From contig CAXGUD010000072.1 of NCBI GenBank assembly GCA_964012805.1, forward strand, positions 1 to 13,236: 13,236 nucleotides of DNA, read 5' to 3'. Positions within the stretch are counted from its first letter, which is position 1, and every line of letters starts with the position of its first letter. This document shows positions 1 to 13,236 of this stretch, in pieces. The position numbers and the translations under genes are program-made. This DNA is from an uncultured Bacteriovoracaceae bacterium. GTDB lineage: Bacteria; Bdellovibrionota; Bacteriovoracia; Bacteriovoracales; Bacteriovoracaceae. The notes under the pieces are model-generated. The model was not told the DNA's origin, ran no database searches, and saw only the letters and a list, made by a program, of their open reading frames with translations.

Positions 1-971
1 AGGTTTTAAAGAAAGGTGATGTCGTTGTCTTTGAATCAACGGTTTATCCCGGCGTAACTGAAGATCATTGCCTCCCTATTTTGGAGGAAACCTCAAAACT
101 AAAATTGGGAGACTTTAAGATAGGGTATTCTCCTGAAAGAATAAATCCTGGAGATAAAGAACACACTTTTTCCAAAATTAAAAAAGTTGTTTCAGCATGT
201 GACGATGAGGCCACAGAAATTATTGCAGAGACTTACGGTGCAGTAGTTGATGCAGGCCTTTTTAAAGCTTCCAGTATTAAAGTTGCTGAAGCGGCAAAAA
301 TTATCGAAAATACCCAAAGGGACCTTAATATATCTTTAATGAATGAATTGGCCCTTATTTTTGAAAAGATGAATATTGATACAAATGAAGTTATCGAAGC
401 GGCTTCTACAAAATGGAACTTTCTCCCTTTTCGTCCTGGACTGGTTGGAGGGCATTGCATAGGAGTAGACCCATATTATTTGACTCATGAAGCAGAGCGT
501 TTGGGCCACATCCCGCAGGTGATTCTTGCTGGAAGAAATATTAATGACAGTATGGGGAAGTATATTGCTGAAAAAACAGTGAAAGAAATGGTCAAGGTTG
601 GAGTTAATGTTAGTGATTCTAAAGTTGGGATTCTTGGAGTTACTTTTAAAGAAAACTGTGGAGACACAAGAAATAGTAAAGTTTTTGATATCGTTAAAGA
701 ATTAAAAACTTATGGAATAAAAGTTCTTATTCATGACCCCCTTGCTGACAAAAAATCTATTGAAGAAGCCTACTCAATAAAAATATCAGAGTGGAACGAG
801 ATATCAAAACTTGATGCTTTGATTTTAGCCGTTCCTCATTCACAGTATCGAGAGCTGAATCACCAAAAACTTGATGAACTTTGCCAAGAAAAGGCCATAT
901 TAATCGATATCAAAAATACAATTCCAAAAAAGGTCCAGTTTAAAAACATAAAAAAGGTTTGGCGGTTATAG
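1..971 (+). CDS. wbpO: UDP-N-acetyl-hexosamine 6-dehydrogenase, WbpO/TviB family (5'-truncated by window edge)
   Basis: The frame is open from position 3 (VLKKGDVVVFESTVYPGVTEDHC), so the TTG at 81 is internal. Family motifs: ESTVYPG, YSPERINPGD, AEAAKIIENTQRDLNI, catalytic GGHCIGVDPYY, GVTFKENCGDTRNS. Directly followed by a WbpP-like epimerase, as in wbpO-wbpP/tviB-tviC pairs. Confidence 0.9.
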   Translation, partial: VLKKGDVVVFESTVYPGVTEDHCLPILEETSKLKLGDFKIGYSPERINPGDKEHTFSKIKKVVSACDDEATEIIAETYGAVVDAGLFKASSIKVAEAAKIIENTQRDLNISLMNELALIFEKMNIDTNEVIEAASTKWNFLPFRPGLVGGHCIGVDPYYLTHEAERLGHIPQVILAGRNINDSMGKYIAEKTVKEMVKVGVNVSDSKVGILGVTFKENCGDTRNSKVFDIVKELKTYGIKVLIHDPLADKKSIEEAYSIKISEWNEISKLDALILAVPHSQYRELNHQKLDELCQEKAILIDIKNTIPKKVQFKNIKKVWRL

Positions 972-972
972 G

Positions 973-2001
973 ATGAAATTTTCGAATTACGAAGATTTGA
1001 AAGAAAAGCTAATTCAAACGCCTAAGAAGTGGTTTCTAACAGGTGCGGCTGGCTTTATTGGAAGTAACCTTCTTCAAGAACTTTTGGAATTGAAACAAGA
1101 GGTAGTGGCCATTGATAATTTCAGTAATGGCCATAGGTCCAACTTGGATGATGTAAAGAGCAAAGTCCTTGAAAAAAAATGGAAAAACTTATCTTTCTAT
1201 GAAGGAGATTTTACCAACTCCGAGCTTATGAATAAGCTTTGCAAAGGGGTAGATTATGTACTCCATCAGGGCGCCTTAGGATCTGTTCCGAGGTCTATTA
1301 AAGATCCGATAAGGTCTAACCACCACAATGTTGGGGGGCAATTATCAGTTTTAGAAGCTTCCAAAAATAATGGTGTACAGAAAGTGGTTTATGCGAGCAG
1401 TAGCTCAGTTTATGGGGACCATTCCATGCTTCCTAAAATTGAGCACACAATAGGAAAACAGCTTTCTCCATACGCTGTATCAAAATATGTTAATGAACTT
1501 TATGCAAAAGTTTTTTTTGATACTTATGAACTCTCTTCAATTGGCCTTCGCTATTTTAATGTGTTTGGTAGAAGACAATCTCCTGAAGGGGCTTATGCTG
1601 CCGTCATTCCGCTTTGGTTAAGGGCCATGATTAGAAATGAGCAGCTTTTCATAAATGGGGATGGAGAAACAAGCCGTGACTTTTGTTATGTAAAAAATGT
1701 TATTCAGGCCAATATACAGGCCGCTGTTAGTGATACAAAAGGAGCTGAGGTCTACAATATTGCCTGTAATGATCAAACAACTTTAAATCAACTTTTTAAT
1801 CATTTAAAAGATATCCTTTCATCTGAATGCGGAATTCATTATAAAAAAATGCCTGTTTATAAACCTTTTAGAGAAGGCGATATTAGGCACTCTAGAGCTG
1901 ATATTAAAAAGGCAAAAGAAGACTTCAAGTATTGGCCTAAATATAAAATACAAAAAGGTTTGGAAGAAACAATTCATTGGTATGTGAGTAATTTGAAATG
2001 A
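973..2001 (+). CDS. wbpP: UDP-GlcNAc(A) 4-epimerase, WbpP/TviC family (extended SDR)
   Basis: TGAAGFIGS Rossmann motif, HQGALGSVPRS, ASSSSVYG, catalytic YAVSK, LRYFNVFG, YAAVIP, GDIRHS, all typical of WbpP-type epimerases acting on N-acetylated substrates. Starts 1 nt after the upstream stop. Confidence 0.92.
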   Translation: MKFSNYEDLKEKLIQTPKKWFLTGAAGFIGSNLLQELLELKQEVVAIDNFSNGHRSNLDDVKSKVLEKKWKNLSFYEGDFTNSELMNKLCKGVDYVLHQGALGSVPRSIKDPIRSNHHNVGGQLSVLEASKNNGVQKVVYASSSSVYGDHSMLPKIEHTIGKQLSPYAVSKYVNELYAKVFFDTYELSSIGLRYFNVFGRRQSPEGAYAAVIPLWLRAMIRNEQLFINGDGETSRDFCYVKNVIQANIQAAVSDTKGAEVYNIACNDQTTLNQLFNHLKDILSSECGIHYKKMPVYKPFREGDIRHSRADIKKAKEDFKYWPKYKIQKGLEETIHWYVSNLK

Positions 2002-3113
2002 AAGTATTAGTTATTTCAGCAGACCCGAGGTCTCTCGTTCAATTTCGTAGGGATCTGATGGTCAAAATGAAAGAAAAGGGCCATGAGGTTATGGCCTTGT
2101 CTCCTATCAATGATGAAAGAGGGGATTCGTCATGCCTTGAAAAGGAGGGCATTAAAGTTAATTTTGTGGATATTGATCGAACGGGTCTTAATCCTCTTCA
2201 CGACCTCAAGGCATTTTACGAGATTTTTACAATCGTGAAAAAGTTTAAGCCTGATGTTGTTTTCTCTTTCACAATCAAACCTGTCATTTATGGTTCTTTG
2301 GCTTCTTTTTTTGGTGGTGCAAAAAGAATTTACTCTCTTATACCAGGTGTTGGACACGTTTTTTTAAACAAAAGCTGGGGTGGAAAAGTTCTTAGGTTTT
2401 TAGTTTCAAGAATGTACCAAATCTCTTTAATTACTAATTCTAAAGTTTTTTTTCAAAATAATGATGACCTGGACCTCTTCATTTCAAAAAGGATTTTGAA
2501 AAGAAAGAAAGCTTTTAAAGTGAATGGCTCTGGAGTCAATACGGATGAGTTTAAGCGAAATGAAACTCTTCCAAAGAGGCCCGTCTTTTTACTAGCAGGT
2601 CGAATCATTAAAGAAAAGGGAATTAAAGAATACGTTGAAGCCGTTAGAGTTTTGAAAAAAAATAAGGGTTATTCTTTTAAGGCTTTTCTTGTTGGTGGCT
2701 TTGATAAAAATCCCACTTCTTTTAACGAAAAATCCTTAAAGGACTTAAATTTTGATGGTGTTATTGATTATCTTGGTGATCAAAGTGATATGAAAAGTGT
2801 CTTTGAAAAATCTTCAGTCTATGTACTTCCTTCTTACCGTGAAGGGACACCAAGATCGACTTTGGAAGCTATGAGTATGATGATGCCTGTCGTGACAACT
2901 GATGTTCCTGGCTGTCGAGAAACCGTAAAGGAAGGAGTTAATGGTTTTTTAGTCGGTTTAAAATCAGTGTCAGATTTAGCAAAGTCCATGGAAAAATTTA
3001 TTATAAATAGTGAATTGATTTCAATAATGGGTAGTGAAAGTTTAAAGATCGTACGTGATAAATTTGATGTTAGAAAAGTAAATCAAGTTTACTTGGAAGA
3101 AATGGGCCTCTAA
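1998..3113 (+). CDS. GT4 (GT-B) glycosyltransferase, CapM/PglA-like
   Basis: FTIKPVIYG, FFQNNDD, GSGV, GRIIKEKG, and VLPSYREGTPRSTLEAM (EX7E) followed by TTDVPGCRETV. ATGA overlap with the epimerase stop. Confidence 0.9.
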   Translation: MKVLVISADPRSLVQFRRDLMVKMKEKGHEVMALSPINDERGDSSCLEKEGIKVNFVDIDRTGLNPLHDLKAFYEIFTIVKKFKPDVVFSFTIKPVIYGSLASFFGGAKRIYSLIPGVGHVFLNKSWGGKVLRFLVSRMYQISLITNSKVFFQNNDDLDLFISKRILKRKKAFKVNGSGVNTDEFKRNETLPKRPVFLLAGRIIKEKGIKEYVEAVRVLKKNKGYSFKAFLVGGFDKNPTSFNEKSLKDLNFDGVIDYLGDQSDMKSVFEKSSVYVLPSYREGTPRSTLEAMSMMMPVVTTDVPGCRETVKEGVNGFLVGLKSVSDLAKSMEKFIINSELISIMGSESLKIVRDKFDVRKVNQVYLEEMGL

Positions 3114-3133: not shown

Positions 3134-3161
3134 TTTACCTAAATGGGTCCTTAGATATAAT
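3134..3161 (+). promoter_or_regulatory. Putative internal sigma70-type promoter upstream of the wecB-wecC fusion
   Basis: TTTACC (3134-3139), 16-nt spacer, perfect TATAAT (3156-3161) in a 156-bp intergenic gap. The AT-rich background lowers specificity. Confidence 0.45.
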
Positions 3162-3269: not shown

Positions 3270-5516
3270 ATGAAAGTTTGCATAGTCGTAGGAACGAGGC
3301 CAGAAATAATTAAAATGTCTTCGGTCATTAAGGAGTGCCAAAAACGGGGACACGATTATTTTATTGTTCATTCGAATCAACATTACAGTGAGTCAATGGA
3401 CAAGGTATTTTTCCAGGATCTTCAGCTTCCTCCGCCTGATTACAATTTAAATGTAGGTCCAGGACCTCATTCTAACCAAACTGGAAATATACTTATTAAG
3501 ATTGAACCTGTCCTAGAAAAAGAAAGACCTAATATTGTCTTAGTGCAAGGTGATACTAATACTGTTTTGGCAGCAGGACTGGCCGCCAGTAAATTAGGCA
3601 TCAAGGTTGGTCATGTTGAAGCAGGTCTCCGGTCTTATGATAGAACAATGCCAGAAGAGACCAATAGAATTGTCGTTGATCATCTTTCTGATTACCTTTT
3701 TGCCGTTTCCTCTACGCAGAAGGATATTCTTTCTCACGAAGGTGTTGAAAAAGGAAAAGTATACACTGTAGGAAATACTGTTGTAGACTCCCTTTACCAA
3801 CACTCAAAGCTTTCACAAGAAACAAGCCTTATTCTTTCTAATCTTGGGATTTTAGAAAAAGAGTATTTTCTTGCGACGATCCATAGAAGCGCAAATGTAG
3901 ATAATATGACGGCCTTAAAGGAAGTCCTCTTGCTTTTAGAAAAAGTTGCCAAAACTTTTGGAAAAGTTGTTGTATGGCCCATGCACCCCAGGACCAAAAA
4001 AAGGATAAAGGAATTTCACCTTTCAATTCCTGAAGGAATCAAGATTATCGATCCTCTGGGTTATAATGATTTTTTAAAATTGGAAAACAATGCAAAACTT
4101 ATTCTAACCGATTCTGGTGGAGTTCAGGAAGAGGCCTGCATTTTAAGAGTTCCATGTCTTACTATTCGAAACAATACCGAACGCCCTGAGACGGTTGCCG
4201 TCGGTGCAAATAAAATTGTAGGGAGGGATCATAAAAAGGCCATAGTAGAAATCGAAAACTTCCTTAATAAACTTCCAAATTGGGAAAACCCTTTTGGGAA
4301 TGGAACAACGTCTGTTTCGATCTTGGATATACTGGAAGGCGACCTTTGGAAGAAATCAAACGAGAGAGTTTGTGTTGTAGGATTAGGCTATATGGGGCTT
4401 CCGATGGCATCCCTTCTAGCGGCTTCGGGTTTTAACGTCTCTGGTGTCGATATAGATAAAGCAAAAAGAGATGCCATTAATAAAGGGGAGTGTCCGTTAA
4501 ATGAACCGGGTCTTGTAGAACTCGTTAAAAAAGCCGTCCACAAGTTTGGGATGAAGGCTTTTTCAAAACCCGTTGAAAGTGACGTCTTTATAATTTCTGT
4601 CCCAACGCCTAAAACAGAAAATCAGTGTGATCTTTCCTATGTTATCAACGCTTGCGAGTCGATTGTTCCCTATGTTTCGGACGGGGCCCTCGTTATTTTA
4701 GAGTCTACAATGAAGCCAGGGACTTGCCGTGATATTATTTCTCCCCTCTTTGAAGAGAAAGGCAAAAAAGTTTTGATCTGTCATTGCCCTGAAAGGGCCA
4801 TTCCTGGAAATACCCTTCATGAAATTATAAACAATGACCGGTTGATAGGTGGAATGAGTGCTGAGGCAGGTCGTCTTGCAAAAGAAATTTATGGGAAATT
4901 TATTAAAGGCAACCTTTTGATGACTGACGCTACTACTGCAGAATGCGTTAAGCTGATGGAAAACACATACCGAGATGTTAATATTGCTTTGGCCAACGAG
5001 TTTGATCTTATTCTTCAAAAATATGAAGTAGATTCCTTCGAGGCCATTGAATTGGCCAACAGGCATCCTAGAGTTAATATTCTTTCTCCCGGTCCTGGTG
5101 TTGGAGGGCATTGTATTGCTGTAGACCCCCACTTTTTATCTGAAGGCAACGAAAATGCACGGCTTATTAATTTGGCCAGAAAGATCAATGATGAAAGACC
5201 TCGTGTTGTTGCAGAGAGGGTTATTAAAGAGGCCAAAAAACATGGTAAAAAAATAGGTATATTAGGGGTGGCCTATAAGAAAAATGTTGATGATTGTCGA
5301 GAAACACCTGCTTTAGGCATTGTAGAGGAATTACTAGAAGAAGGCCTAGAGGTTCGGTGTCATGACCCTTTTGTGAAAAAATGGAGTCATAAGATGTTCC
5401 ATTATGATGAGCTAGAAAACTGGAGTGATCTCTTTGTTTTATTAACTGATCATGATGCTTTCAAAGAATTGAAAATTGTTAAGCCTTTAGTAGATACTCG
5501 AAAGATGTTTAACTAG
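3270..5516 (+). CDS. wecB-wecC: Bifunctional fusion: non-hydrolysing UDP-GlcNAc 2-epimerase (aa ~1-356) + UDP-ManNAc 6-dehydrogenase (aa ~366-748)
   Basis: N-half: GTRPEIIK, VQGDTNT, HVEAGLRS, PEETNR, TIHR, TDSGGVQEEA, TERPE, NPFGNG. C-half: VCVVGLGYMG, VPTP, ILESTMKPG, CPERAIPG, KLMENTYRDVNIALANE, GPGVGGHCIAVDP, GVAYKKNVDDCRETPA. No stop between the halves. Confidence 0.92.
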   Translation: MKVCIVVGTRPEIIKMSSVIKECQKRGHDYFIVHSNQHYSESMDKVFFQDLQLPPPDYNLNVGPGPHSNQTGNILIKIEPVLEKERPNIVLVQGDTNTVLAAGLAASKLGIKVGHVEAGLRSYDRTMPEETNRIVVDHLSDYLFAVSSTQKDILSHEGVEKGKVYTVGNTVVDSLYQHSKLSQETSLILSNLGILEKEYFLATIHRSANVDNMTALKEVLLLLEKVAKTFGKVVVWPMHPRTKKRIKEFHLSIPEGIKIIDPLGYNDFLKLENNAKLILTDSGGVQEEACILRVPCLTIRNNTERPETVAVGANKIVGRDHKKAIVEIENFLNKLPNWENPFGNGTTSVSILDILEGDLWKKSNERVCVVGLGYMGLPMASLLAASGFNVSGVDIDKAKRDAINKGECPLNEPGLVELVKKAVHKFGMKAFSKPVESDVFIISVPTPKTENQCDLSYVINACESIVPYVSDGALVILESTMKPGTCRDIISPLFEEKGKKVLICHCPERAIPGNTLHEIINNDRLIGGMSAEAGRLAKEIYGKFIKGNLLMTDATTAECVKLMENTYRDVNIALANEFDLILQKYEVDSFEAIELANRHPRVNILSPGPGVGGHCIAVDPHFLSEGNENARLINLARKINDERPRVVAERVIKEAKKHGKKIGILGVAYKKNVDDCRETPALGIVEELLEEGLEVRCHDPFVKKWSHKMFHYDELENWSDLFVLLTDHDAFKELKIVKPLVDTRKMFN

Positions 5517-5531
5517 GAGACGAGATTTTTT

Positions 5532-6716
5532 ATGAGGATTCTCTTTATTTCTGATAACTTCCCTCCTGAGGTCAATGCTCCTGCATCGAGAACGTATGAG
5601 CATTGTCGTGAGTGGGTTGAGAAGGGGCACAAAGTCACAGTTTTGACTTGCACACCGAATTTCCCGCAGGGAAGAGTTTATCCAGGTTTTAAAAACAAGC
5701 TTTTCCAAGTTGATGAAATTTCTGGAATTAAAGTCATTAGGGTGTGGAGTTATGTGGCGGAAAATAAGGGGTTTTTAAAAAGAGCACTGGATTATTTAAG
5801 CTTTGCTTTTATGGCCATTATTGTTGGAACATTTTTAAAAGCGGACCGAATTGTTACAACCTCTCCCCAGTTTTTTGTAAACTTTACGGGTCTTTATTTG
5901 AAATTGTTAAAAAGGTGCCCTTGGATTATGGAGGTCAGGGATATTTGGCCTGAATCTATCCTCGCTGTTGGCTCGATGAAGAGGAATTTTATAATCAAAA
6001 CTCTCGAAAAGTTTGAAGTTCTTTTTTACCGGACTTGCAACAGGTTAGTTGTCGTAACAGACTCCTTTAGAGACTATCTTTTGAAGAAAAATATTGATGA
6101 TTCTAAAATCTTTGTTGTTAAAAATGGAATTAATACAGGTCTTTTTCAACCTGGGCAAAAAATACAAAACAAGAAAGATTTTATCGTCGGCTATATGGGA
6201 ACTCTAGGTTTGGCCCACGGCCTTGATTTTATCCTTGAATGCGCAAAAGATGTTCAACTCCTTGATAAAGATATAAAGTTCTACTTTGTGGGTGATGGAG
6301 CCGTTCGAAAAAAGTTGAGGGCACGGGCCAAAGAGCTTAACCTGGCAAATGTTCATTTTTTTGACTCAATTCCTAAAAAAGAAGTGCCTTCAATGATAGA
6401 AACGTTTGATGTAGGACTGGTTAATTTAAAAAAATCAGAAACCTTTAGGTCTGTTATTCCATCAAAAATTTTTGAACTCGGGGCCATGAAAAAACCAATT
6501 TTGATTGGAGTTGATGGCGAGGCAAGAAAAATGGTTGAAGACTACGAATTAGGCCACTTTTTTGAACCAGAAAACAAACAAAAATTTATTGAAAAACTCT
6601 TCCTTATGAAAAATAATAGAGGAAGTATTGAATCAAAGGCCTATTTACAATTTTTAAAAGCCTATGACCGGAAAGTTTTAGCGGATAAGATGTTGAGGTA
6701 TGTGACTAACTTATGA
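5532..6716 (+). CDS. GT4 glycosyltransferase, WbuB-like
   Basis: N-terminal ISDNFPPEVNAPASR, PNFPQG, TSPQFF, EVRDIWPES, YMGTLGLAHGL, VGDG, PSKIFE. AGGAG at 5515-5519 upstream. Confidence 0.9.
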   Translation: MRILFISDNFPPEVNAPASRTYEHCREWVEKGHKVTVLTCTPNFPQGRVYPGFKNKLFQVDEISGIKVIRVWSYVAENKGFLKRALDYLSFAFMAIIVGTFLKADRIVTTSPQFFVNFTGLYLKLLKRCPWIMEVRDIWPESILAVGSMKRNFIIKTLEKFEVLFYRTCNRLVVVTDSFRDYLLKKNIDDSKIFVVKNGINTGLFQPGQKIQNKKDFIVGYMGTLGLAHGLDFILECAKDVQLLDKDIKFYFVGDGAVRKKLRARAKELNLANVHFFDSIPKKEVPSMIETFDVGLVNLKKSETFRSVIPSKIFELGAMKKPILIGVDGEARKMVEDYELGHFFEPENKQKFIEKLFLMKNNRGSIESKAYLQFLKAYDRKVLADKMLRYVTNL

Positions 6717-7774
6717 CTCTTGCAATCTTAGGATCTTTTTTTACTGCTTGCTTTCTGACTATTCTGTCGATTCCAACAATTATAAAAATCTCTGAGCTTA
6801 AGAATTTAAATGATAATCCGAGCCCAAGAAAACTGCACTCAGTGAGTACTCCAACTCTTGGGGGAGTCGCTATTTTTGCAGCATTTATCATTAGTAGTAC
6901 CCTTTGGTTAAACCCTGAAACTTCTATAAATCTTCAATATATCATTTGTGCCCTTATCATCCTTTTTTTCATTGGAATTAAAGACGACATATATGACATT
7001 ATTCATTACAAAAAGTTTATTGTTCAGGCCTTCGCTTCGTTTGTTATTATCCATTTTGCGGGAATTAAACTTACGAGCTTATATGGCCTTTTTGGAGTGT
7101 ATGAAATTTCAACTTTTTGGTCTTATGTCCTTTCTTTTTTCGTTTACACTGGGATTATTAATGCGATTAACCTCATCGATGGAATCAATTGCCTAGCTGG
7201 TTCAATAGGGATGATTTCCTCTGTTGCTTTTGGGGCTTTCTTTTATTACTTAGGTTTGGAAAACTGGTCAATCCTTTGCTTTGCCCTTACGGGGAGTCTA
7301 GCTGGGTTTCTTTATTTCAATAAAACACCAGCAAAGATTTTTATGGGCGATACTGGCTCTCTCATAGTTGGTTTAATGTGTTCAATTTTTGCTATTCATT
7401 TTATTGAATACAATGCTGATGCTGTTATCTTCAAATCAGGCCCTACTATTGCAATTTCAATTCTCATTATTCCTATTTTTGATACTATCCGGATTATATT
7501 AAGGCGTTTATGGAACAAGAAGGGAATTTTTCAGCCGGACAGAAACCATATTCACCATATATTAGTTGATAGTGGTTTTTCACATCATAAATCAGTTTTT
7601 TTCCTTCTATCAGTTAATCTCTTTGTTATTGGTTCATGCTATATTTTCCAAGACTTGGATAAATATAAGATTTTCGCAGGTCACGGAGCAGAACTTCTTC
7701 TCTTTTTTATTTTTATTTTTATGTTTCTTTTATTTAACCTAATTGAAAGGTCTCTGGTCAAAAAAGTTAAATAA
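6713..7774 (+). CDS. wecA: Undecaprenyl-phosphate HexNAc-1-phosphate transferase, WecA/TagO/MraY family
   Basis: About 10-11 hydrophobic segments; RKLH..TPTLGGVAIF, GIKDD, NAINLIDG, FMGDTGS, PIFDT..R, PDRNHIHH. ATGA overlap with the upstream GT. Confidence 0.9.
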   Translation: MTLAILGSFFTACFLTILSIPTIIKISELKNLNDNPSPRKLHSVSTPTLGGVAIFAAFIISSTLWLNPETSINLQYIICALIILFFIGIKDDIYDIIHYKKFIVQAFASFVIIHFAGIKLTSLYGLFGVYEISTFWSYVLSFFVYTGIINAINLIDGINCLAGSIGMISSVAFGAFFYYLGLENWSILCFALTGSLAGFLYFNKTPAKIFMGDTGSLIVGLMCSIFAIHFIEYNADAVIFKSGPTIAISILIIPIFDTIRIILRRLWNKKGIFQPDRNHIHHILVDSGFSHHKSVFFLLSVNLFVIGSCYIFQDLDKYKIFAGHGAELLLFFIFIFMFLLFNLIERSLVKKVK

Positions 7775-8668
7775 ATTTTGAACGGCCATGAGTCCTTGTT
7801 TTTCTACATTCTCTTTTGTTCTCGAACTGACGTGGGGAGTTATATAGACATTTGAAAACTTTTTAAGAGGGTGGTCTTCTACCATAGGCTCAAAGTCCAG
7901 GACATCAGTTAAATAGGCACCAATTTTGTTTGATTCTAATTTTTCAAGTAAGGCTTCTAGATCTACCAAATTAGATCGGGCGGTATTTATGAGTATTTTT
8001 GTTTGATTGAAAAAATTGAGTAACTCTTTGTTAATAATATGCTTAGTGCTTTTATTTAAATTAAGATGAAGTGTAATGATATCACTTTCCTCGACAAGTT
8101 CGTTAATGCTTTGGCATTTTTTAATGCTATTTTTACTTAAAAAAGATTCGTCATAGATTTTATCGAACCCCAAAACATTCATCTCAAAGGCATTTGCAAT
8201 CCGGGCTACAGCTTTACCAATGTTTCCGAGGCCTACGATCCCAATAGATTTTCCTTTTATTTCAAATCCAGTTTTTCTTTCCCAACCTTTTTTAAGATGC
8301 AGATGCATATTTTTTGAGAAGCTTAAAAGAAGTGTGAATACGTGTTCGGCCACTGTTGAGTGGTTCACTCCTTTGCAATTTCTAACTTCTATACCAAGTT
8401 TTCCTGCACTTTTGAGGTTTATTTTGTCGAGTCCTACACCATACTTTGAAATAATTTTGACTTTAGATTCGGCTCCTTTTTTAAGAACTTTCTCAGTGTA
8501 TTCATCATCTCCGCAAACGATGCCATCATATTTATGGATAACGTTATAAATATCCGATTCAACTAAAGGACCTCTAAGAAATTCAATTTTATAACCCTTG
8601 GAGTTTAAAAGATCGTGATGTTTACCCGGAGTGTCTAAAAAAGAGGTTGATGTCACGAGAATATTCAT
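7739..8668 (-). CDS. D-isomer-specific 2-hydroxyacid dehydrogenase (phosphoglycerate-dehydrogenase-like, no ACT domain)
   Basis: KYGVGLDKI, NHSTVAEH, GIVGLGNIG, INTAR, DVLDFEP, TPHV (Arg/Glu/His catalytic triad present). GGAGG ribosome-binding site at 8681-8677, 8 nt from the ATG. Confidence 0.9.
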   Translation of the reverse strand: MNILVTSTSFLDTPGKHHDLLNSKGYKIEFLRGPLVESDIYNVIHKYDGIVCGDDEYTEKVLKKGAESKVKIISKYGVGLDKINLKSAGKLGIEVRNCKGVNHSTVAEHVFTLLLSFSKNMHLHLKKGWERKTGFEIKGKSIGIVGLGNIGKAVARIANAFEMNVLGFDKIYDESFLSKNSIKKCQSINELVEESDIITLHLNLNKSTKHIINKELLNFFNQTKILINTARSNLVDLEALLEKLESNKIGAYLTDVLDFEPMVEDHPLKKFSNVYITPHVSSRTKENVEKQGLMAVQNLFNFFDQRPFN

Positions 8669-8728
8669 TGGTAGCGCCTCCGTTTTTAAATTTGAAATAT
8701 ATACTTAAGGTCAAAAAATGTGAAGTCA

Positions 8729-10240
8729 TTAGGCTTTAACTTCCTCAGGTTTGATATCATTGTTTTCAAAGGAGCGATCCGAAAAAATTTGAACGAGATC
8801 TTTAAAAAAGGGCATATATTTACGAAGGAAAAGGAAGAGCATTCCAAATTGAATGGCCTGATCTGAGGATTGATAGCCAAATATGCCCACTGATGACATA
8901 AGAAAAGATGTCCAAAAGAAAAATATCCAAAAAAGAAATGATTCTTCTTTTTTCACTTTTTTAAATTGAAAGAGGCACATTAGAAATATTAGAAATAAAG
9001 GGCCCCAAAAAGGAAAAGTATAGATGATCCCTAAGGGGACTCCTAGTGCAAGGATAACATCTAGTAGATAAGCGTGGCCTGTAAAGCCATAATCATGAGA
9101 AAATGTACTTGTTTTAGGGAACCCGGCTCCTCTTAAAAGACTTTTGTTTTGACTATGATAAACAATCGCCGTATAAAACATTGAAAACCTATTTAAGTTT
9201 TCAATTCTATCCCCGATTGAAGCCGATTCGATTTTTTCAACATTTTCAACCTTATGCTTTTGAATTAAAGAATTAAAGCGTGACTTACCACCCTCTTTTA
9301 AAAAAGGCATTTTATAAACAAAAAGGAAGCACACTGAAAGAAGTGTGACAAAAATGAATAATTTTTGAAAATTAATCTTTGGAGAGTTTACCCAAAGGAT
9401 CCCTATAAACATTAGGGAAATGAAAGTTCCAATCATGCTTAGGATTTGTTGTAGGTAAACAAAAAAGAAGCTTATTAAAAAAAAGCCTATAAAAAATAAG
9501 GTATCTTTTTTCTTCTTAATAGAGGGAAAAAATCTAAAGAAGAAATAGAAAAGAGCTGGAAGCAGAAGCATAAATTTACGATTTGCTGGATTATCTAGTG
9601 CAAATAAAGCTGCTTTTGGGAATTTTAAGAGAGGGTCTGAAATAGGAAAAAGAAAGATTTTTTTTGCTACATCTAAAGGAATTCCTGCGCCGGCACCAAC
9701 TCCTACTTGAATATCTCTTGCCAAACCATCGGAGGAAACTTTTAGAATAACTGAATAGAGGAAACTGTGGGGGAGGTAGAGTAGGGTAATAAATATTGAA
9801 CTCATGGCCATAAACTTTATAAAAGTATCCTCTTCTTCCTTTTTAAAGGGTATGAAAATAAAAATAAGGCACCATGAAGAAATCACTATATTTTTTATAA
9901 ATTGGGTTGGGAAGTGACCTTGGGTTAGGTAATGACAAAGAGATATAAAAGCTCCTATCCCAAAATAATACCCACTGACCTTTAAGAAATTCGCACAGCT
10001 TTTTAAATTAATGACATGCCTTCTTTTTCTTATAAGATTCAAAATGAGGAGTGAAATAAACGAGAAAAGAAAAAGTCTGGAAAAAGTCAAGGGGACTCTT
10101 CCTATATCAAAATTAAAAGACGTTGAAAAAAAGGGAATGCCCAGAAGTAGATATATAGGAACGACAAGGATAGGTTTTTTTGAAGCCTTATAAGACCCAA
10201 GAATAATAAAAAAAACTCCCACTAAGAAAAGAAGCTCCAT
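8729..10240 (-). CDS. Polytopic membrane protein, probable O-antigen ligase/polymerase (WaaL/Wzy-like)
   Basis: Many Phe/Leu/Ile-rich TM segments with a large late soluble loop reading R..MFYTA...LLRGAGF...GHAYLLDVILALGVPLG, resembling the GxG...H.xY/F.....G..G pattern of Wzy_C/WaaL proteins. ATG at 10240 (AAGG 8 nt upstream) is preferred over TTG at 10246. The CDS is well supported; the function is moderately supported. Confidence 0.6.
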   Translation of the reverse strand: MELLFLVGVFFIILGSYKASKKPILVVPIYLLLGIPFFSTSFNFDIGRVPLTFSRLFLFSFISLLILNLIRKRRHVINLKSCANFLKVSGYYFGIGAFISLCHYLTQGHFPTQFIKNIVISSWCLIFIFIPFKKEEEDTFIKFMAMSSIFITLLYLPHSFLYSVILKVSSDGLARDIQVGVGAGAGIPLDVAKKIFLFPISDPLLKFPKAALFALDNPANRKFMLLLPALFYFFFRFFPSIKKKKDTLFFIGFFLISFFFVYLQQILSMIGTFISLMFIGILWVNSPKINFQKLFIFVTLLSVCFLFVYKMPFLKEGGKSRFNSLIQKHKVENVEKIESASIGDRIENLNRFSMFYTAIVYHSQNKSLLRGAGFPKTSTFSHDYGFTGHAYLLDVILALGVPLGIIYTFPFWGPLFLIFLMCLFQFKKVKKEESFLFWIFFFWTSFLMSSVGIFGYQSSDQAIQFGMLFLFLRKYMPFFKDLVQIFSDRSFENNDIKPEEVKA

Positions 10241-10273
10241 AATCAAAACCTTTAGAAAGGGTTTTTAATCATT

Positions 10274-10307
10274 AAGTCAATACTTTATGGGAAAGTCAAT
10301 TTATGGG
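10274..10307. repeat. Imperfect tandem direct repeat AAGTCAAT(ACT)TTATGGG x2
   Basis: AAGTCAAT at 10274-10281 and 10293-10300, each followed by TTATGGG (10285-10291, 10301-10307), in the gap between the HAD gene and the membrane-protein gene. Confidence 0.6.
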
Positions 10308-10312
10308 GTTTC

Positions 10313-10963
10313 TTAAAGGTTTTTTTCCAAGTTTCCTGGAATTTCTTTAAAGTTATTCATACGAAAGCAATCTATATCCTTAAAATAGTTGAGATTGTCG
10401 TTTGTTTCCCTTAATAGGAATAAAAGCTCACAATTTCTACTGGCCTCATAGTCAGTAAGGGCATCTCCTATGAAAAGAGACTCTTTTCTATCGAGATCAT
10501 GCTCTTTGGTTAACTGGTTGACCCAATCTGTTTTTTTCCCTGGAGTACCAAAAACTCCAAGAAAATAATGATCTAACTTTTTATACCTTACAATTTCTCG
10601 GAGTTCTTCTTGTGGAGTACCTGATATAACCCACATTCTTTTCTCTAATTTTTGGCACTTGTCTAGAAAATTAATGACTCCTTCAACATAACTAGAATTG
10701 ATGACTTCATTAAAGCAGAGTTCTCTAAACTTTTTGGCAAGCTCGTCAATCTGTTTTTGATTTGTTTTCCTTTCAAGGATTATCTCTTCAAAATATCTTA
10801 ACTTTTCAAAACGTGAAAGACCGCCATATTTTAAATGGTAATTGACAACTCTGTTGGCGACTTCTGCACCATATGGTTCGTAAAGTTTGAAAAAAGCATT
10901 AGTCTTGCTTTGCACAGAGTCTAAAATAACACCGTCGAAATCAAAAAAAATATTTTTTAGCAT
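10313..10963 (-). CDS. HAD-superfamily hydrolase (phosphatase, phosphoglycolate-phosphatase-like fold)
   Basis: Motif I FDFDGVILDS, motif II ISGT, motif III K (GKK), motif IV FIGDALTD; 216 aa. Confidence 0.92.
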   Translation of the reverse strand: MLKNIFFDFDGVILDSVQSKTNAFFKLYEPYGAEVANRVVNYHLKYGGLSRFEKLRYFEEIILERKTNQKQIDELAKKFRELCFNEVINSSYVEGVINFLDKCQKLEKRMWVISGTPQEELREIVRYKKLDHYFLGVFGTPGKKTDWVNQLTKEHDLDRKESLFIGDALTDYEASRNCELLFLLRETNDNLNYFKDIDCFRMNNFKEIPGNLEKNL

Positions 10964-11066: not shown

Positions 11067-12089
11067 ATGATTGATGGAAGTACTATCTTGGTAACAGGTG
11101 GAACTGGTTCTTTTGGAAAAAAGTTTATTCAAAGAGTCCTTAATAATTATGATGTAAAAAAAATTATTATATTTTCGAGGGATGAGCTCAAACAATTTGA
11201 AATGATGAACGACCCTTGTTTTAAAGAGCACCTAGCTAGCAACCGAATGAGGTTTTTTATTGGTGACGTCAGGGATAAAGAAAGGCTTCATATTGCCTTG
11301 GACGAAGTTGACTTCGTTGTTCACGCTGCAGCTTTAAAACAGGTTCCAACCGCTGAATATAATCCAATGGAGTGCATTAAAACGAATGTCTTAGGGGCAC
11401 AAAACATCATCGATGCCTGTATGACCTCTAAAGTGCGGAGAGTGGTTGCCCTTTCAACTGATAAGGCGGCTTCTCCTGTTAATTTGTATGGGGCCACTAA
11501 ATTGTGTTCCGATAAACTATTCGTCGCTGCAAATAATATTGTTGGTAACCGCGACTTGAGGTTTTCTGTCGTGCGATATGGAAATGTCCTTGGGTCACGT
11601 GGTTCCGTGATTCCTTTCTTTCTTAATAAAATGAACGAAGGAACCCTCCCGATTACTGACGAGCGAATGACACGATTTAGTATTAGTTTAGAGGAAGGCG
11701 TTGATTTTGTTTTAAATGCTTTAATGAATGCCTGGGGGGGAGAGCTATTTGTTCCTAAGATTCCTTCCTATAAAATTACAGATGTGGCCAAGGCGATAGC
11801 TCCTTCTGCAAAATTTGTGATCTCAGGAATTAGGCCGGGTGAAAAAATACATGAGGAGATGATTACAGAAACGGACTCATTTAATACTTTGGATCTAGGC
11901 AACCACTACGTTATTTGTCCTTCAACGAATAATAGAAACCTCAATGTTGAAAAGTTTATTGATTTTTACCAGGCCAAAAAAGTACCCATCGGTTTTCGTT
12001 ATAACTCCGGAGAAAACGAGCATTTTCTGAGTGTCACGGAAATAAGAGAACAAATTAAAACCCATGTAGATCCTTCTCTGGAGGTCTGA
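11067..12089 (+). CDS. pseB: UDP-GlcNAc 4,6-dehydratase (inverting), first step of pseudaminic acid synthesis
   Basis: TGGTGSFG, FSRDELKQ, FIGDVRD, HAAALKQVPTAEYNP, ALSTDKA, NLYGATK, VRYGNVLGSRGSV, TDERMTRF, GIRPGEKIHE. GAGG RBS at 11057-11060. Confidence 0.95.
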   Translation: MIDGSTILVTGGTGSFGKKFIQRVLNNYDVKKIIIFSRDELKQFEMMNDPCFKEHLASNRMRFFIGDVRDKERLHIALDEVDFVVHAAALKQVPTAEYNPMECIKTNVLGAQNIIDACMTSKVRRVVALSTDKAASPVNLYGATKLCSDKLFVAANNIVGNRDLRFSVVRYGNVLGSRGSVIPFFLNKMNEGTLPITDERMTRFSISLEEGVDFVLNALMNAWGGELFVPKIPSYKITDVAKAIAPSAKFVISGIRPGEKIHEEMITETDSFNTLDLGNHYVICPSTNNRNLNVEKFIDFYQAKKVPIGFRYNSGENEHFLSVTEIREQIKTHVDPSLEV

Positions 12090-12090
12090 T

Positions 12091-13236
12091 GTGGTAATAG
12101 GATATGGGAAGCAAAGTATAGACCAAGGTGATATTGATGCCGTCACAAAAGTGCTGAAGTCAGACTTCCTTACACAGGGACCATCCGTATCTCATTTTGA
12201 AGAAGACTTTTCCAGAGAAATGGGATCAAAATTCGCCGTTTCTGTCTCGAATGCAACAGCTGCACTCCACCTTTCTTGTATGGCCATAGGTCTCGAAAAA
12301 AATCAAAAGGTGATCACTTCTCCTTTAACTTTTGCTGCGTCTGCTAACTGCGTACTCTATTGCGGTGGCTTAGTGGATCTTTGTGACATTGATCCCGTTA
12401 CCTACACAATGGATCTTTCTAAGCTTGAAGAAAAGCTCAAAAGGAGTCCGAAGGGAACTTACGCAGGCGTCATACCCGTAAGTTATGCTGGTCATCCAAT
12501 AGACGGTGAAAGACTAAAATATTTAGCGAAGGAATATAATTTTTGGGTCATCGAAGATAATTGCCATGCGCCAGGTTCTTCTTTTAGAGATCAAGCTGGA
12601 ACAATCAATAAAACAGGAAGCTGTAAATATGCGGACCTCAGCGTTTTTTCCCTCCATCCAGTGAAGCATATCGCTGCAGGAGAGGGAGGTGTTATTACAA
12701 CAAATAATAAAAGCCTCTATGAAAAATTAAAGCTTTTAAGGTCCCATAACATGGAAAAATCAAAGGATAGTTTATGGGAATATGATATAGAGTCTTTGGG
12801 TTATAATTACCGCTTAACTGATATTCAAGCCTCTTTAGCGACAACTCAACTGAAAAAACTAAAAGATTCTGTTAGGAGGCGGAACGAGATCGCTCGTTTT
12901 TATAATGAACAATTAAAGTTTTTTCCTCTCGTTCTTCCTAAAGCGAGGGAAGGCTTTTTTCACGCTTATCACCTTTATGCTGTCCAGGCTGAAAAGAGAA
13001 AAGAGCTCTATCTTTTTCTAAGAGAGCGTAAGATTTATACGCAAGTTCACTACATTCCTATTCATTATTTAAGCCTTTATAAAAAGAAAGGTTTCAAACA
13101 GGGAATGTATCCAATTGCCGAAAGTTTTTATGAGAAATGCCTCTCTCTCCCCATGTTTCCAACCTTAGAAGTTAAAGACCTTAAAAGAATTATTTCCTAT
13201 ATAAAAGAGTTTTATGAAAACAAAAAAAATTGGAAT
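12091..13236 (+). CDS. pseC: PLP-dependent UDP-4-keto-6-deoxy-sugar aminotransferase (DegT/DnrJ family), PseC; 3' end runs just off the window
   Basis: Manual translation from GTG 12091 (GGAGG at 12080-12084): MVIGYGKQSIDQGDIDAV..SDFLTQGP, SNATAALH, TFAASAN, IEDNCHAPG, FSLHPVKHIAAGEGG (PLP lysine), LGYNYRLTDIQA, QVHYIP, LSLPMFP. 382 codons with no stop before the window end. Directly follows pseB. Confidence 0.92.
   Translation, partial: MVIGYGKQSIDQGDIDAVTKVLKSDFLTQGPSVSHFEEDFSREMGSKFAVSVSNATAALHLSCMAIGLEKNQKVITSPLTFAASANCVLYCGGLVDLCDIDPVTYTMDLSKLEEKLKRSPKGTYAGVIPVSYAGHPIDGERLKYLAKEYNFWVIEDNCHAPGSSFRDQAGTINKTGSCKYADLSVFSLHPVKHIAAGEGGVITTNNKSLYEKLKLLRSHNMEKSKDSLWEYDIESLGYNYRLTDIQASLATTQLKKLKDSVRRRNEIARFYNEQLKFFPLVLPKAREGFFHAYHLYAVQAEKRKELYLFLRERKIYTQVHYIPIHYLSLYKKKGFKQGMYPIAESFYEKCLSLPMFPTLEVKDLKRIISYIKEFYENKKNWN
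13214..13236 (+). CDS. Possible start of the next gene (MKTKKIG...), overlapping the pseC 3' end
   Basis: ATG at 13214 in a different frame, with AAAGAG just upstream. Only 7 codons are visible, so no product can be assigned. Confidence 0.3.

Follow-up and report, generated by a model that had tools for sequence, protein, structure and literature searches.

The question raised by this locus is whether two consecutive enzymes of one sugar-nucleotide pathway are genuinely encoded there as a single chain and, if so, what that chain does. The window, by which the whole 13,236-bp stretch of DNA analyzed is meant, corresponds to all of contig C72 in a genome of 4.47 Mb whose completeness is rated at 100%; the source is an uncultured Bacteriovoracaceae bacterium. 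The element under study is a fused wecB-wecC gene at 3270-5516 on the forward strand, encoding 748 aa. WecB/WecC and Cap5P/Cap5O-type pairs are normally separate proteins for consecutive steps. The initial annotation had described one uninterrupted 748-aa open reading frame (ORF) with two complete domains, and this was borne out by the ORF itself and by Pfam and NCBIfam matches: 3270-5516 is confirmed as a genuine single-chain WecB-WecC fusion. The fusion is likely to convert UDP-N-acetylglucosamine (UDP-GlcNAc) to UDP-N-acetylmannosamine (UDP-ManNAc) and then to UDP-N-acetylmannosaminuronic acid (UDP-ManNAcA), its two halves acting as tethered but independent enzymes.

The ORF starts with ATG and its translation contained no internal stops. 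Pfam searches placed Epimerase_2 at residues 22-356 (E 7e-108) and, in the dehydrogenase half, UDPG_MGDP_dh_N at 366-536, UDPG_MGDP_dh at 556-641 and UDPG_MGDP_dh_C at 663-745. Two NCBIfam models were passed, TIGR00236 (wecB, residues 1-355) with 387 bits against a cut-off of 210 and TIGR03026 (NDP-sugar dehydrogenase, residues 366-736) with 404 against 190. From profiles and alignments, a UDP-GlcNAc 2-epimerase domain of the non-hydrolyzing kind, GT-B fold and Methanocaldococcus type was assigned to residues 1-355 (3270-4334), and a predicted UDP-ManNAc 6-dehydrogenase domain of Cap5O/Pyrococcus type to residues 366-748 (4365-5513). The linker EGDLWKKSNER (residues 356-366, 4335-4367) leaves about 10 residues between them. 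This linker and the motifs GDT, HVEAG, PEE, IHR, GLGYMG and GGHC, all listed in the initial annotation, were found where it had placed them. No other 2-epimerase or ManNAc-type dehydrogenase gene was detected in the rest of the genome. An AlphaFold2 model built with a 96-sequence alignment comprised two complete folds (mean predicted local distance difference test, pLDDT, 93.6; predicted template modeling score, pTM, 0.68), and no solved chain spanned both halves, the best query template modeling (TM) score among the matches listed being 0.49. A single-sequence fold of the Colwellia orthologue (pLDDT 37.8) was uninformative.

The junction was checked by comparing the window with Logan contigs, rather than raw reads, of four runs. 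Contigs from two runs belonging to different studies (X1 record 4, 4285-4578; X3 record 14, 4217-4643) bridged the junction in frame, with 19 and 28 substitutions, respectively, and 0 gaps; contigs of the other two runs (X4 and X6) do not reach it. Among the substitutions listed, 17 fell at 4295-4441, in 16 codons, and created no stop. An indel or stop at the junction, named in the initial annotation as a finding that would undo the fusion, was not seen in these contigs. The explanation that two overlapping genes were merged by an indel from assembly, or by a one-off frameshift, is almost certainly wrong. There is a GA repeat at the junction, an out-of-frame TTG near 4346 is preceded by a purine-rich stretch, and in the close relative L005 the epimerase and dehydrogenase genes overlap by ATGA, all of which would suit such an accident. 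The two bridging contigs, however, are gap-free and carry base changes within that very purine stretch, at least 119 further full-length fusions exist, and a single ORF was found in 30 of 30 loci examined of the Thalassotalea-containing family and in 3/3 new full-length loci of the host phylum; on these grounds the artefact was refuted. An internal restart yielding a separate dehydrogenase was also ruled out. From codon 353 up to the first glycine in the dehydrogenase motif no in-frame start codon occurs, so that an intact separate dehydrogenase could not begin inside the linker, and Met occurs in just 4 of 120 linkers.

The best 120 protein matches consisted of the window protein and 119 others (737-770 aa, 52-61% identity, at least 98% query coverage), all 119 of which carry both domain sets; the named carriers among the matches listed were Halobacteriovorax, Thalassotalea, Colwellia and Cognaticolwellia. 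At least 176 full-length fused sequences were gathered in all. The rarity suggested at first was not upheld, since this is a conserved family already labeled as two-function in UniRef for Colwellia psychrerythraea. Nor are all close relatives split, an outcome that had been raised against the fusion: at least 119 full-length fusions align across the junction. Among relatives of the host the fusion is rare: a full-length copy was present in 1 of 150 other genomes sampled from the host order and in 4 of 400 from the host phylum (a sample overlapping the first), and in the same-family genome G137 the epimerase/dehydrogenase pair is split, with an ATGA overlap. The G137 epimerase is identical to a protein labeled Bacteriovoracaceae, in keeping with membership of the host in that predatory family. 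In the Thalassotalea-containing family, 44 of 401 sampled genomes had a match of nearly full length lying in an open frame of at least 752 aa. The ESM Atlas holds a 63-member cluster with the fusion architecture, and the sequence sets matching this DNA were mostly marine metagenomes; no RNA set was listed among them, which bears on expression in neither direction. One 761-aa member (P0525, in the cluster of P0363) comes from the eukaryotic transcriptome collection MMETSP; probably derived from a bacterial passenger, it would represent a transcribed fusion.

Family conservation was scored on an alignment of these 120 fused sequences. Residue roles were taken, for the epimerase half, from PMC10622841 and PMC11464976 and, for the dehydrogenase half, from PMC4794789. 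The functional residues of the epimerase half are R10, K15, D95, E117, E129, H205, S282 and E288, and the catalytic and binding set matches K15, D95, E117, E131 and H213 of the E. coli enzyme. The catalytic D95, E117, E129 and H205 were invariant (120/120), and K15 was present in 116, the four misses being N-terminal gaps. Of the allosteric residues, Q37, H38, R206 and H239 were likewise invariant (120/120) and Q70 was found in 119/120. A diacetamido-uronate epimerase is separated from UDP-GlcNAc epimerases by Ala18, Tyr96 and Trp307 (PMC10622841). All three positions are of the UDP-GlcNAc type in the window protein (M16, Q93 and R305) and nearly so across the family (Q93 and R305 in 120/120, M or L at position 16 in 117/120); residues at these positions touch the hydroxyls at C3 and C6 in UDP-GlcNAc (PMC10622841). 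The best solved match was the Methanocaldococcus jannaschii UDP-GlcNAc 2-epimerase 4NEQ/4NES (E 4e-127, 54% identity), with a target TM of 0.92 to 4NES when the AlphaFold2 model was used in a structure search, and the model for hydrolyzing 2-epimerases (NeuC, TIGR03568) was failed, with 86 bits against a cut-off of 236. The N-terminal half is predicted to be a UDP-GlcNAc 2-epimerase that is non-hydrolyzing and of the UDP-GlcNAc type.

For the dehydrogenase half, Cap5O numbers were mapped by hand on a sequence alignment with an 11-residue tag offset. The GxGxxG motif at 371-376 (G371/G373/G376), K561 and the catalytic C615 were present in 120/120 fusions. The ManNAc-group residues E478, R509, P512, R568, H599, R601, V611, H614, V618 and F622 of the window protein matched their Cap5O counterparts (E117, R152, P155, R211, H242, R244, V254, H257, V261 and F265) in 10 of 10 cases. 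R509, R568, H599 and R601 were invariant in the 120 aligned fusions; among nine positions assigned to the UDP-ManNAc dehydrogenase group (PMC4794789), eight were invariant (120/120) and the ninth was I in 110 and V in 10. The best solved matches, by sequence and by fold, were the UDP-ManNAc dehydrogenases Cap5O (3OJL) and Pyrococcus 4R16. The C-terminal half is predicted to be a UDP-ManNAc 6-dehydrogenase catalyzing the Cap5O/WecC reaction. Domains and residues together support the earlier proposal that both active sites are intact and that UDP-ManNAcA synthesis may be predicted from a single chain. In Cap5O, His242 acts across subunits, so that the dehydrogenase needs a dimer, and Cys92 has been proposed to pair with the catalytic Cys in a regulatory disulfide (PMC4794789). 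Cys453 (codon at 4626-4628, forward strand), which aligned with Cys92, was present in 120/120 fused sequences versus 29/267 unfused dehydrogenases.

The history of the fusion was examined on both halves. A FastTree tree of the dehydrogenase half, with 330 rows, placed every one of the 131 fused rows inside a single 143-row branch (support 99); of the 12 unfused rows there, 7 look like pieces of fusions that were truncated at a contig edge or given a wrong start, and the other 5 have a start of their own. In the epimerase-half tree the fusions were not recovered as one clade (11 changes, 6 of them forced by starred branches). A dehydrogenase-half tree keeping only the fused rows together, with split rows excluded, was weakly rejected by the approximately unbiased (AU) test (p-AU 0.043, groups named post hoc). 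Both halves are of archaeal type, and an archaeal-type origin is likely, because most of the closest named unfused homologues come from archaea (Methanocaldococcus, Pyrococcus, Woesearchaeota, Altiarchaeia, Methanophagales and haloarchaeal plasmid pairs). Recent foreign origin was also considered from base composition, which was uninformative: the GC content of the gene (39.6%, versus 35.3% for the genome) is similar to that of pseB/pseC on the same contig.

Further fusions were collected by an exhaustive search of 50% representatives, which returned three divergent members of the main clade and a second fused clade (P0367, P0368, P0369, P0371, P0372 and P0396; 796-881 aa) on its own branch (support 100). 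The members of the second clade are metagenomic proteins, with 1-2 members per 90% cluster and, in most, long linkers; their epimerase halves are of the enterobacterial type and have intact active-site residues, one with Gln for an allosteric His. Placement of the main and second clades in one clade was rejected on the dehydrogenase halves (p-AU 0.014, groups named post hoc) and on the epimerase halves (p-AU 2e-10, with five of the six used, the groups carried over from the dehydrogenase half, and LG+G4 quick trees). In P0366 (825 aa) the order is reversed, the dehydrogenase preceding the epimerase across a low-complexity Ala/Pro linker. It is a single sequence, on 2 contigs, and its nearest dehydrogenase in the tree comes from an Opitutales genome in which split genes stand in the same order. 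As judged from these trees, the second fused clade and the reverse-order fusion arose separately from the main family. Other partners also occur: archaeal-type 2-epimerases are fused instead to a family 4 glycosyltransferase (GT4) in P0414 (754 aa) and to an S-adenosylmethionine (SAM) methyltransferase in P0387 (634 aa), and a WecC-like match at G567:C1:4389074-4390303 lies within a 908-aa open frame, where another fusion partner is possible.

In the proposed mechanism, a second UDP-GlcNAc at the allosteric site would activate the N-terminal domain, which would epimerize C2, with about 12% UDP-ManNAc at equilibrium. UDP-ManNAc would be released to solvent and then taken up by the C-terminal domain. 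The latter would work as a dimer, with H599 entering the site of the partner subunit like His242 in Cap5O, and would oxidize C6 twice, using 2 NAD+, via a C615 thioester. Oxidation at C6 would drive net flux in the same way as with separate enzymes. The fusion itself would probably fix a 1:1 stoichiometry, keep the two sites close and make the pair transferable between genomes as one gene, and the UDP-ManNAcA would feed the surrounding surface-glycan locus (GT4 transferases and a WecA-like initiator). The unfavorable epimerase equilibrium invoked in the initial annotation agrees with a published equilibrium constant (Keq) of 0.14, i.e. 12% UDP-ManNAc (PMC10919079).

Several observations weigh against this assignment. 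The dehydrogenase half failed both named WecC equivalogs, the bacterial NF008286 (355 against 459) and the archaeal NF040825 (341 against 750), so that the substrate call rests on residues and nearest structures; missing these cut-offs lowers formal model membership, not the predicted reaction. The TviB-like enzyme encoded in the same window, used as a control, has E478, R509, P512, R568, V611 and H614 (six of the nine group positions) and V618 in common with the fusion. Since the control has most of the supposedly ManNAc-specific positions, only H599, R601 and F622 discriminate here; it lacks equivalents of these three, and the HPRVN motif that contains H599 and R601 is absent from it. In the Thalassotalea-containing family the split wecB/wecC found family-wide is of a different, more distant type, which together with retention of the fusion in 44 of 401 sampled genomes could mean that the tether is selected beyond convenience. 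Finally, no ManNAcA-containing glycan from an organism carrying the fusion was found in the excerpted text of a review of C. psychrerythraea 34H.

A different substrate or order of reactions was weighed, in which the dehydrogenase would act first to make UDP-GlcNAcA and the epimerase would then invert C2, or in which a related sugar would be used. The TviB-like enzyme of the locus would supply UDP-GlcNAcA, and the next-best solved relatives of the epimerase act on UDP-GlcNAc3NAcA (8SXV, E 3e-83) or belong to the CapG/FnlC group. Such a scheme is nevertheless very unlikely given that M16, Q93 and R305 match the contacts to the C3 and C6 hydroxyls of UDP-GlcNAc (PMC10622841) and that the HPRVN motif, missing from the TviB-like control, is present.

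The remaining alternative keeps the two reactions and makes the fusion functionally coupled: UDP-ManNAc would be handed over directly, or the domains would cross-regulate, and the dimer interfaces would give rise to a tetramer, ring or filament. An equilibrium is not shifted by tethering, and UDP-ManNAc is a stable metabolite, which counts against coupling. Separate epimerase and dehydrogenase in one pot already yield UDP-ManNAcA (PMC10919079), so that the pull needs no fusion. The channeling or special pull put forward in the initial annotation was not supported, on this ground and because the linker is unconserved and no fusion-specific patch was found. The stretch from G343 to G371 varies in length (24-39 residues) and sequence across the 120 fusions. 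When 29 non-redundant fusions (from the 176 full-length sequences) were set against split relatives (46 epimerases and 63 dehydrogenases), no fusion-specific conserved columns were found in the epimerase half and two in the dehydrogenase half (C453 and W718). Split pairs are nested within the fused clade, both domain orders occur, and a pTM of 0.68 together with a pLDDT of 93.6 is no sign of a fixed domain arrangement. On the other side stand the repeated origin of the architecture, with a joint clade rejected on both halves, the existence of one reverse-order fusion (P0366), the enrichment of C453 in fusions and the length of the window linker, which, at 27 residues from G343 to G371, is among the shortest of the family (4 of 120 at 27 or fewer). 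Both parent types are, moreover, dimeric (PMC10622841 for a related epimerase; PMC4794789), and two two-fold interfaces would have to be accommodated on a 10-residue linker, which makes assembly a fair question. On balance, coupling is considered unlikely. It is quite unlikely that the broader proposal built on it holds, namely that at least three separate WecB-WecC fusions, in both orders, arose because coupling matters, with a dimer-linked higher-order assembly handing over UDP-ManNAc, an invariant Cys453-Cys615 disulfide as switch, and ManNAcA destined for an undescribed exosortase A/PEP-CTERM glycan in Colwellia and Thalassotalea and for the coats of predatory Bacteriovoracaceae.

Among known systems, the closest counterpart of the window protein is that of C. 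psychrerythraea (Q48A39, AAZ25607.1 or WP_011041181.1), which belongs to the same family and has the four domains in the same order but a longer linker; it is 760 aa long and 53% identical to the window protein over 761 columns. Its UniRef name, 'UDP-N-acetylglucosamine 2-epimerase/UDP-N-acetyl-D-mannosamine dehydrogenase' (a 103-member cluster), is annotation only, and the NCBI name gives the epimerase alone. A full-text literature search for the three identifiers returned no paper. The pairs WecB/WecC (enterobacterial common antigen, ECA), Cap5P/Cap5O (Staphylococcus aureus capsule) and that of Campylobacter jejuni HS:11 share the two predicted reactions and the catalytic residues but, unlike the fusion, are separate proteins, and the epimerase half shares no more than about 31-34% identity with its counterparts from E. 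coli, Neisseria and S. aureus. The archaeal pair is nearer, M. jannaschii 4NEQ/4NES being the closest solved epimerase (53-54% identity to the fusion half) and the Pyrococcus horikoshii UDP-ManNAc dehydrogenase 4R16 a close relative (40% identity). These enzymes are unfused; the dehydrogenase of the fusion is compact (about 384 aa), as in some split relatives. In a described hydrolyzing 2-epimerase-kinase fusion a 2-epimerase is likewise joined, at its C-terminus, to the enzyme for the following pathway step (PMC4793188), but the epimerase there is hydrolyzing and the partner a kinase, whereas the window protein fails the hydrolyzing NeuC model.

No paper characterizing a WecB-WecC fusion was found in a full-text literature search, judged from result lists and the openings of abstracts and with scant coverage of subscription papers, in line with the view in the initial annotation that no characterized example is known. 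The outcome it named against its own claim, an architecture proving common and already characterized, held in part: the fusion is conserved and database-labeled, and no study of it was found. The main text of a domain co-occurrence preprint had no mention of the epimerase; its supplement may list the pair. The fusion is real, conserved and apparently uncharacterized; both reactions are long familiar, and databases already carry the annotation of the fusion. The chemistry is textbook, so that the surprise is small. For chemoenzymatic synthesis the protein would offer access to UDP-ManNAcA from inexpensive UDP-GlcNAc through one gene and probably one enzyme, available from a source that is cultured and cold-adapted, and the existence of fused, split and reverse-order forms allows the reasons for fusion of consecutive enzymes to be studied in nature. 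There is also an annotation gap, as most databases call these 750-aa proteins epimerase only and the dehydrogenase is hidden.

The neighbors of the fused gene are those of a surface-glycan locus, with tviB/tviC-like genes, two GT4 genes, a WecA-like initiator, pseB and pseC. Upstream, on the forward strand at 3-3113, lie a tviB-like dehydrogenase gene (its 5' end cut by the contig end), a tviC-like C4 epimerase gene and a GT4 gene, with matches below the TviB/TviC equivalog cut-offs. In the 156-bp gap 5' of the fused gene, a sigma-70-like promoter match (3134-3161, forward strand) was rejected as no better than chance (1 found, 1.8 expected). Downstream by 15 bp, a second GT4 gene assigned by profile matches (5532-6716, forward strand) encodes, we infer, a candidate user of UDP-ManNAcA, and is followed by a gene for a WecA/MraY-like initiating phosphotransferase (6713-7774, forward strand; below the ECA wecA cut-off). 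Three genes on the minus strand at 7739-10963 oppose the glycan operon and encode a D-2-hydroxyacid dehydrogenase, a 505-aa multi-pass membrane protein and a haloacid dehalogenase (HAD) phosphatase; the first of them shares 36 bp with the end of the wecA-like gene. The 505-aa protein, which had zero Pfam or NCBIfam matches, is perhaps Wzy/ligase-like. At 11067-13236, pseB and pseC pass their equivalog cut-offs, and pseudaminic acid is therefore a probable further product of the locus.

Elsewhere in the host phylum the fused gene stands in varied glycan loci. In three genomes of one genus (L155:10549-12955, L156:5640-8049 and L157:11234-13628) it is directly followed by conserved genes for proteins of 174 aa and roughly 630 aa, the L155 copies of which had zero Pfam matches at E 1e-12. 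In the Thalassotalea-containing family, seven of eight loci had exosortase A/PEP-CTERM genes (exosortase, PrsT, PrsK, PrsR or associated enzymes) within about 8 kb, and the eighth adjoins Wzc-like export genes. These genomes are kin, so that the exosortase link is not independent evidence; it hints that exosortase A/PEP-CTERM loci in Colwellia and Thalassotalea may build a ManNAcA-containing glycan. In L033, L034, L036 and L160-L163 the fused gene was found within exosortase A/PEP-CTERM loci, often beside tandem prsT.

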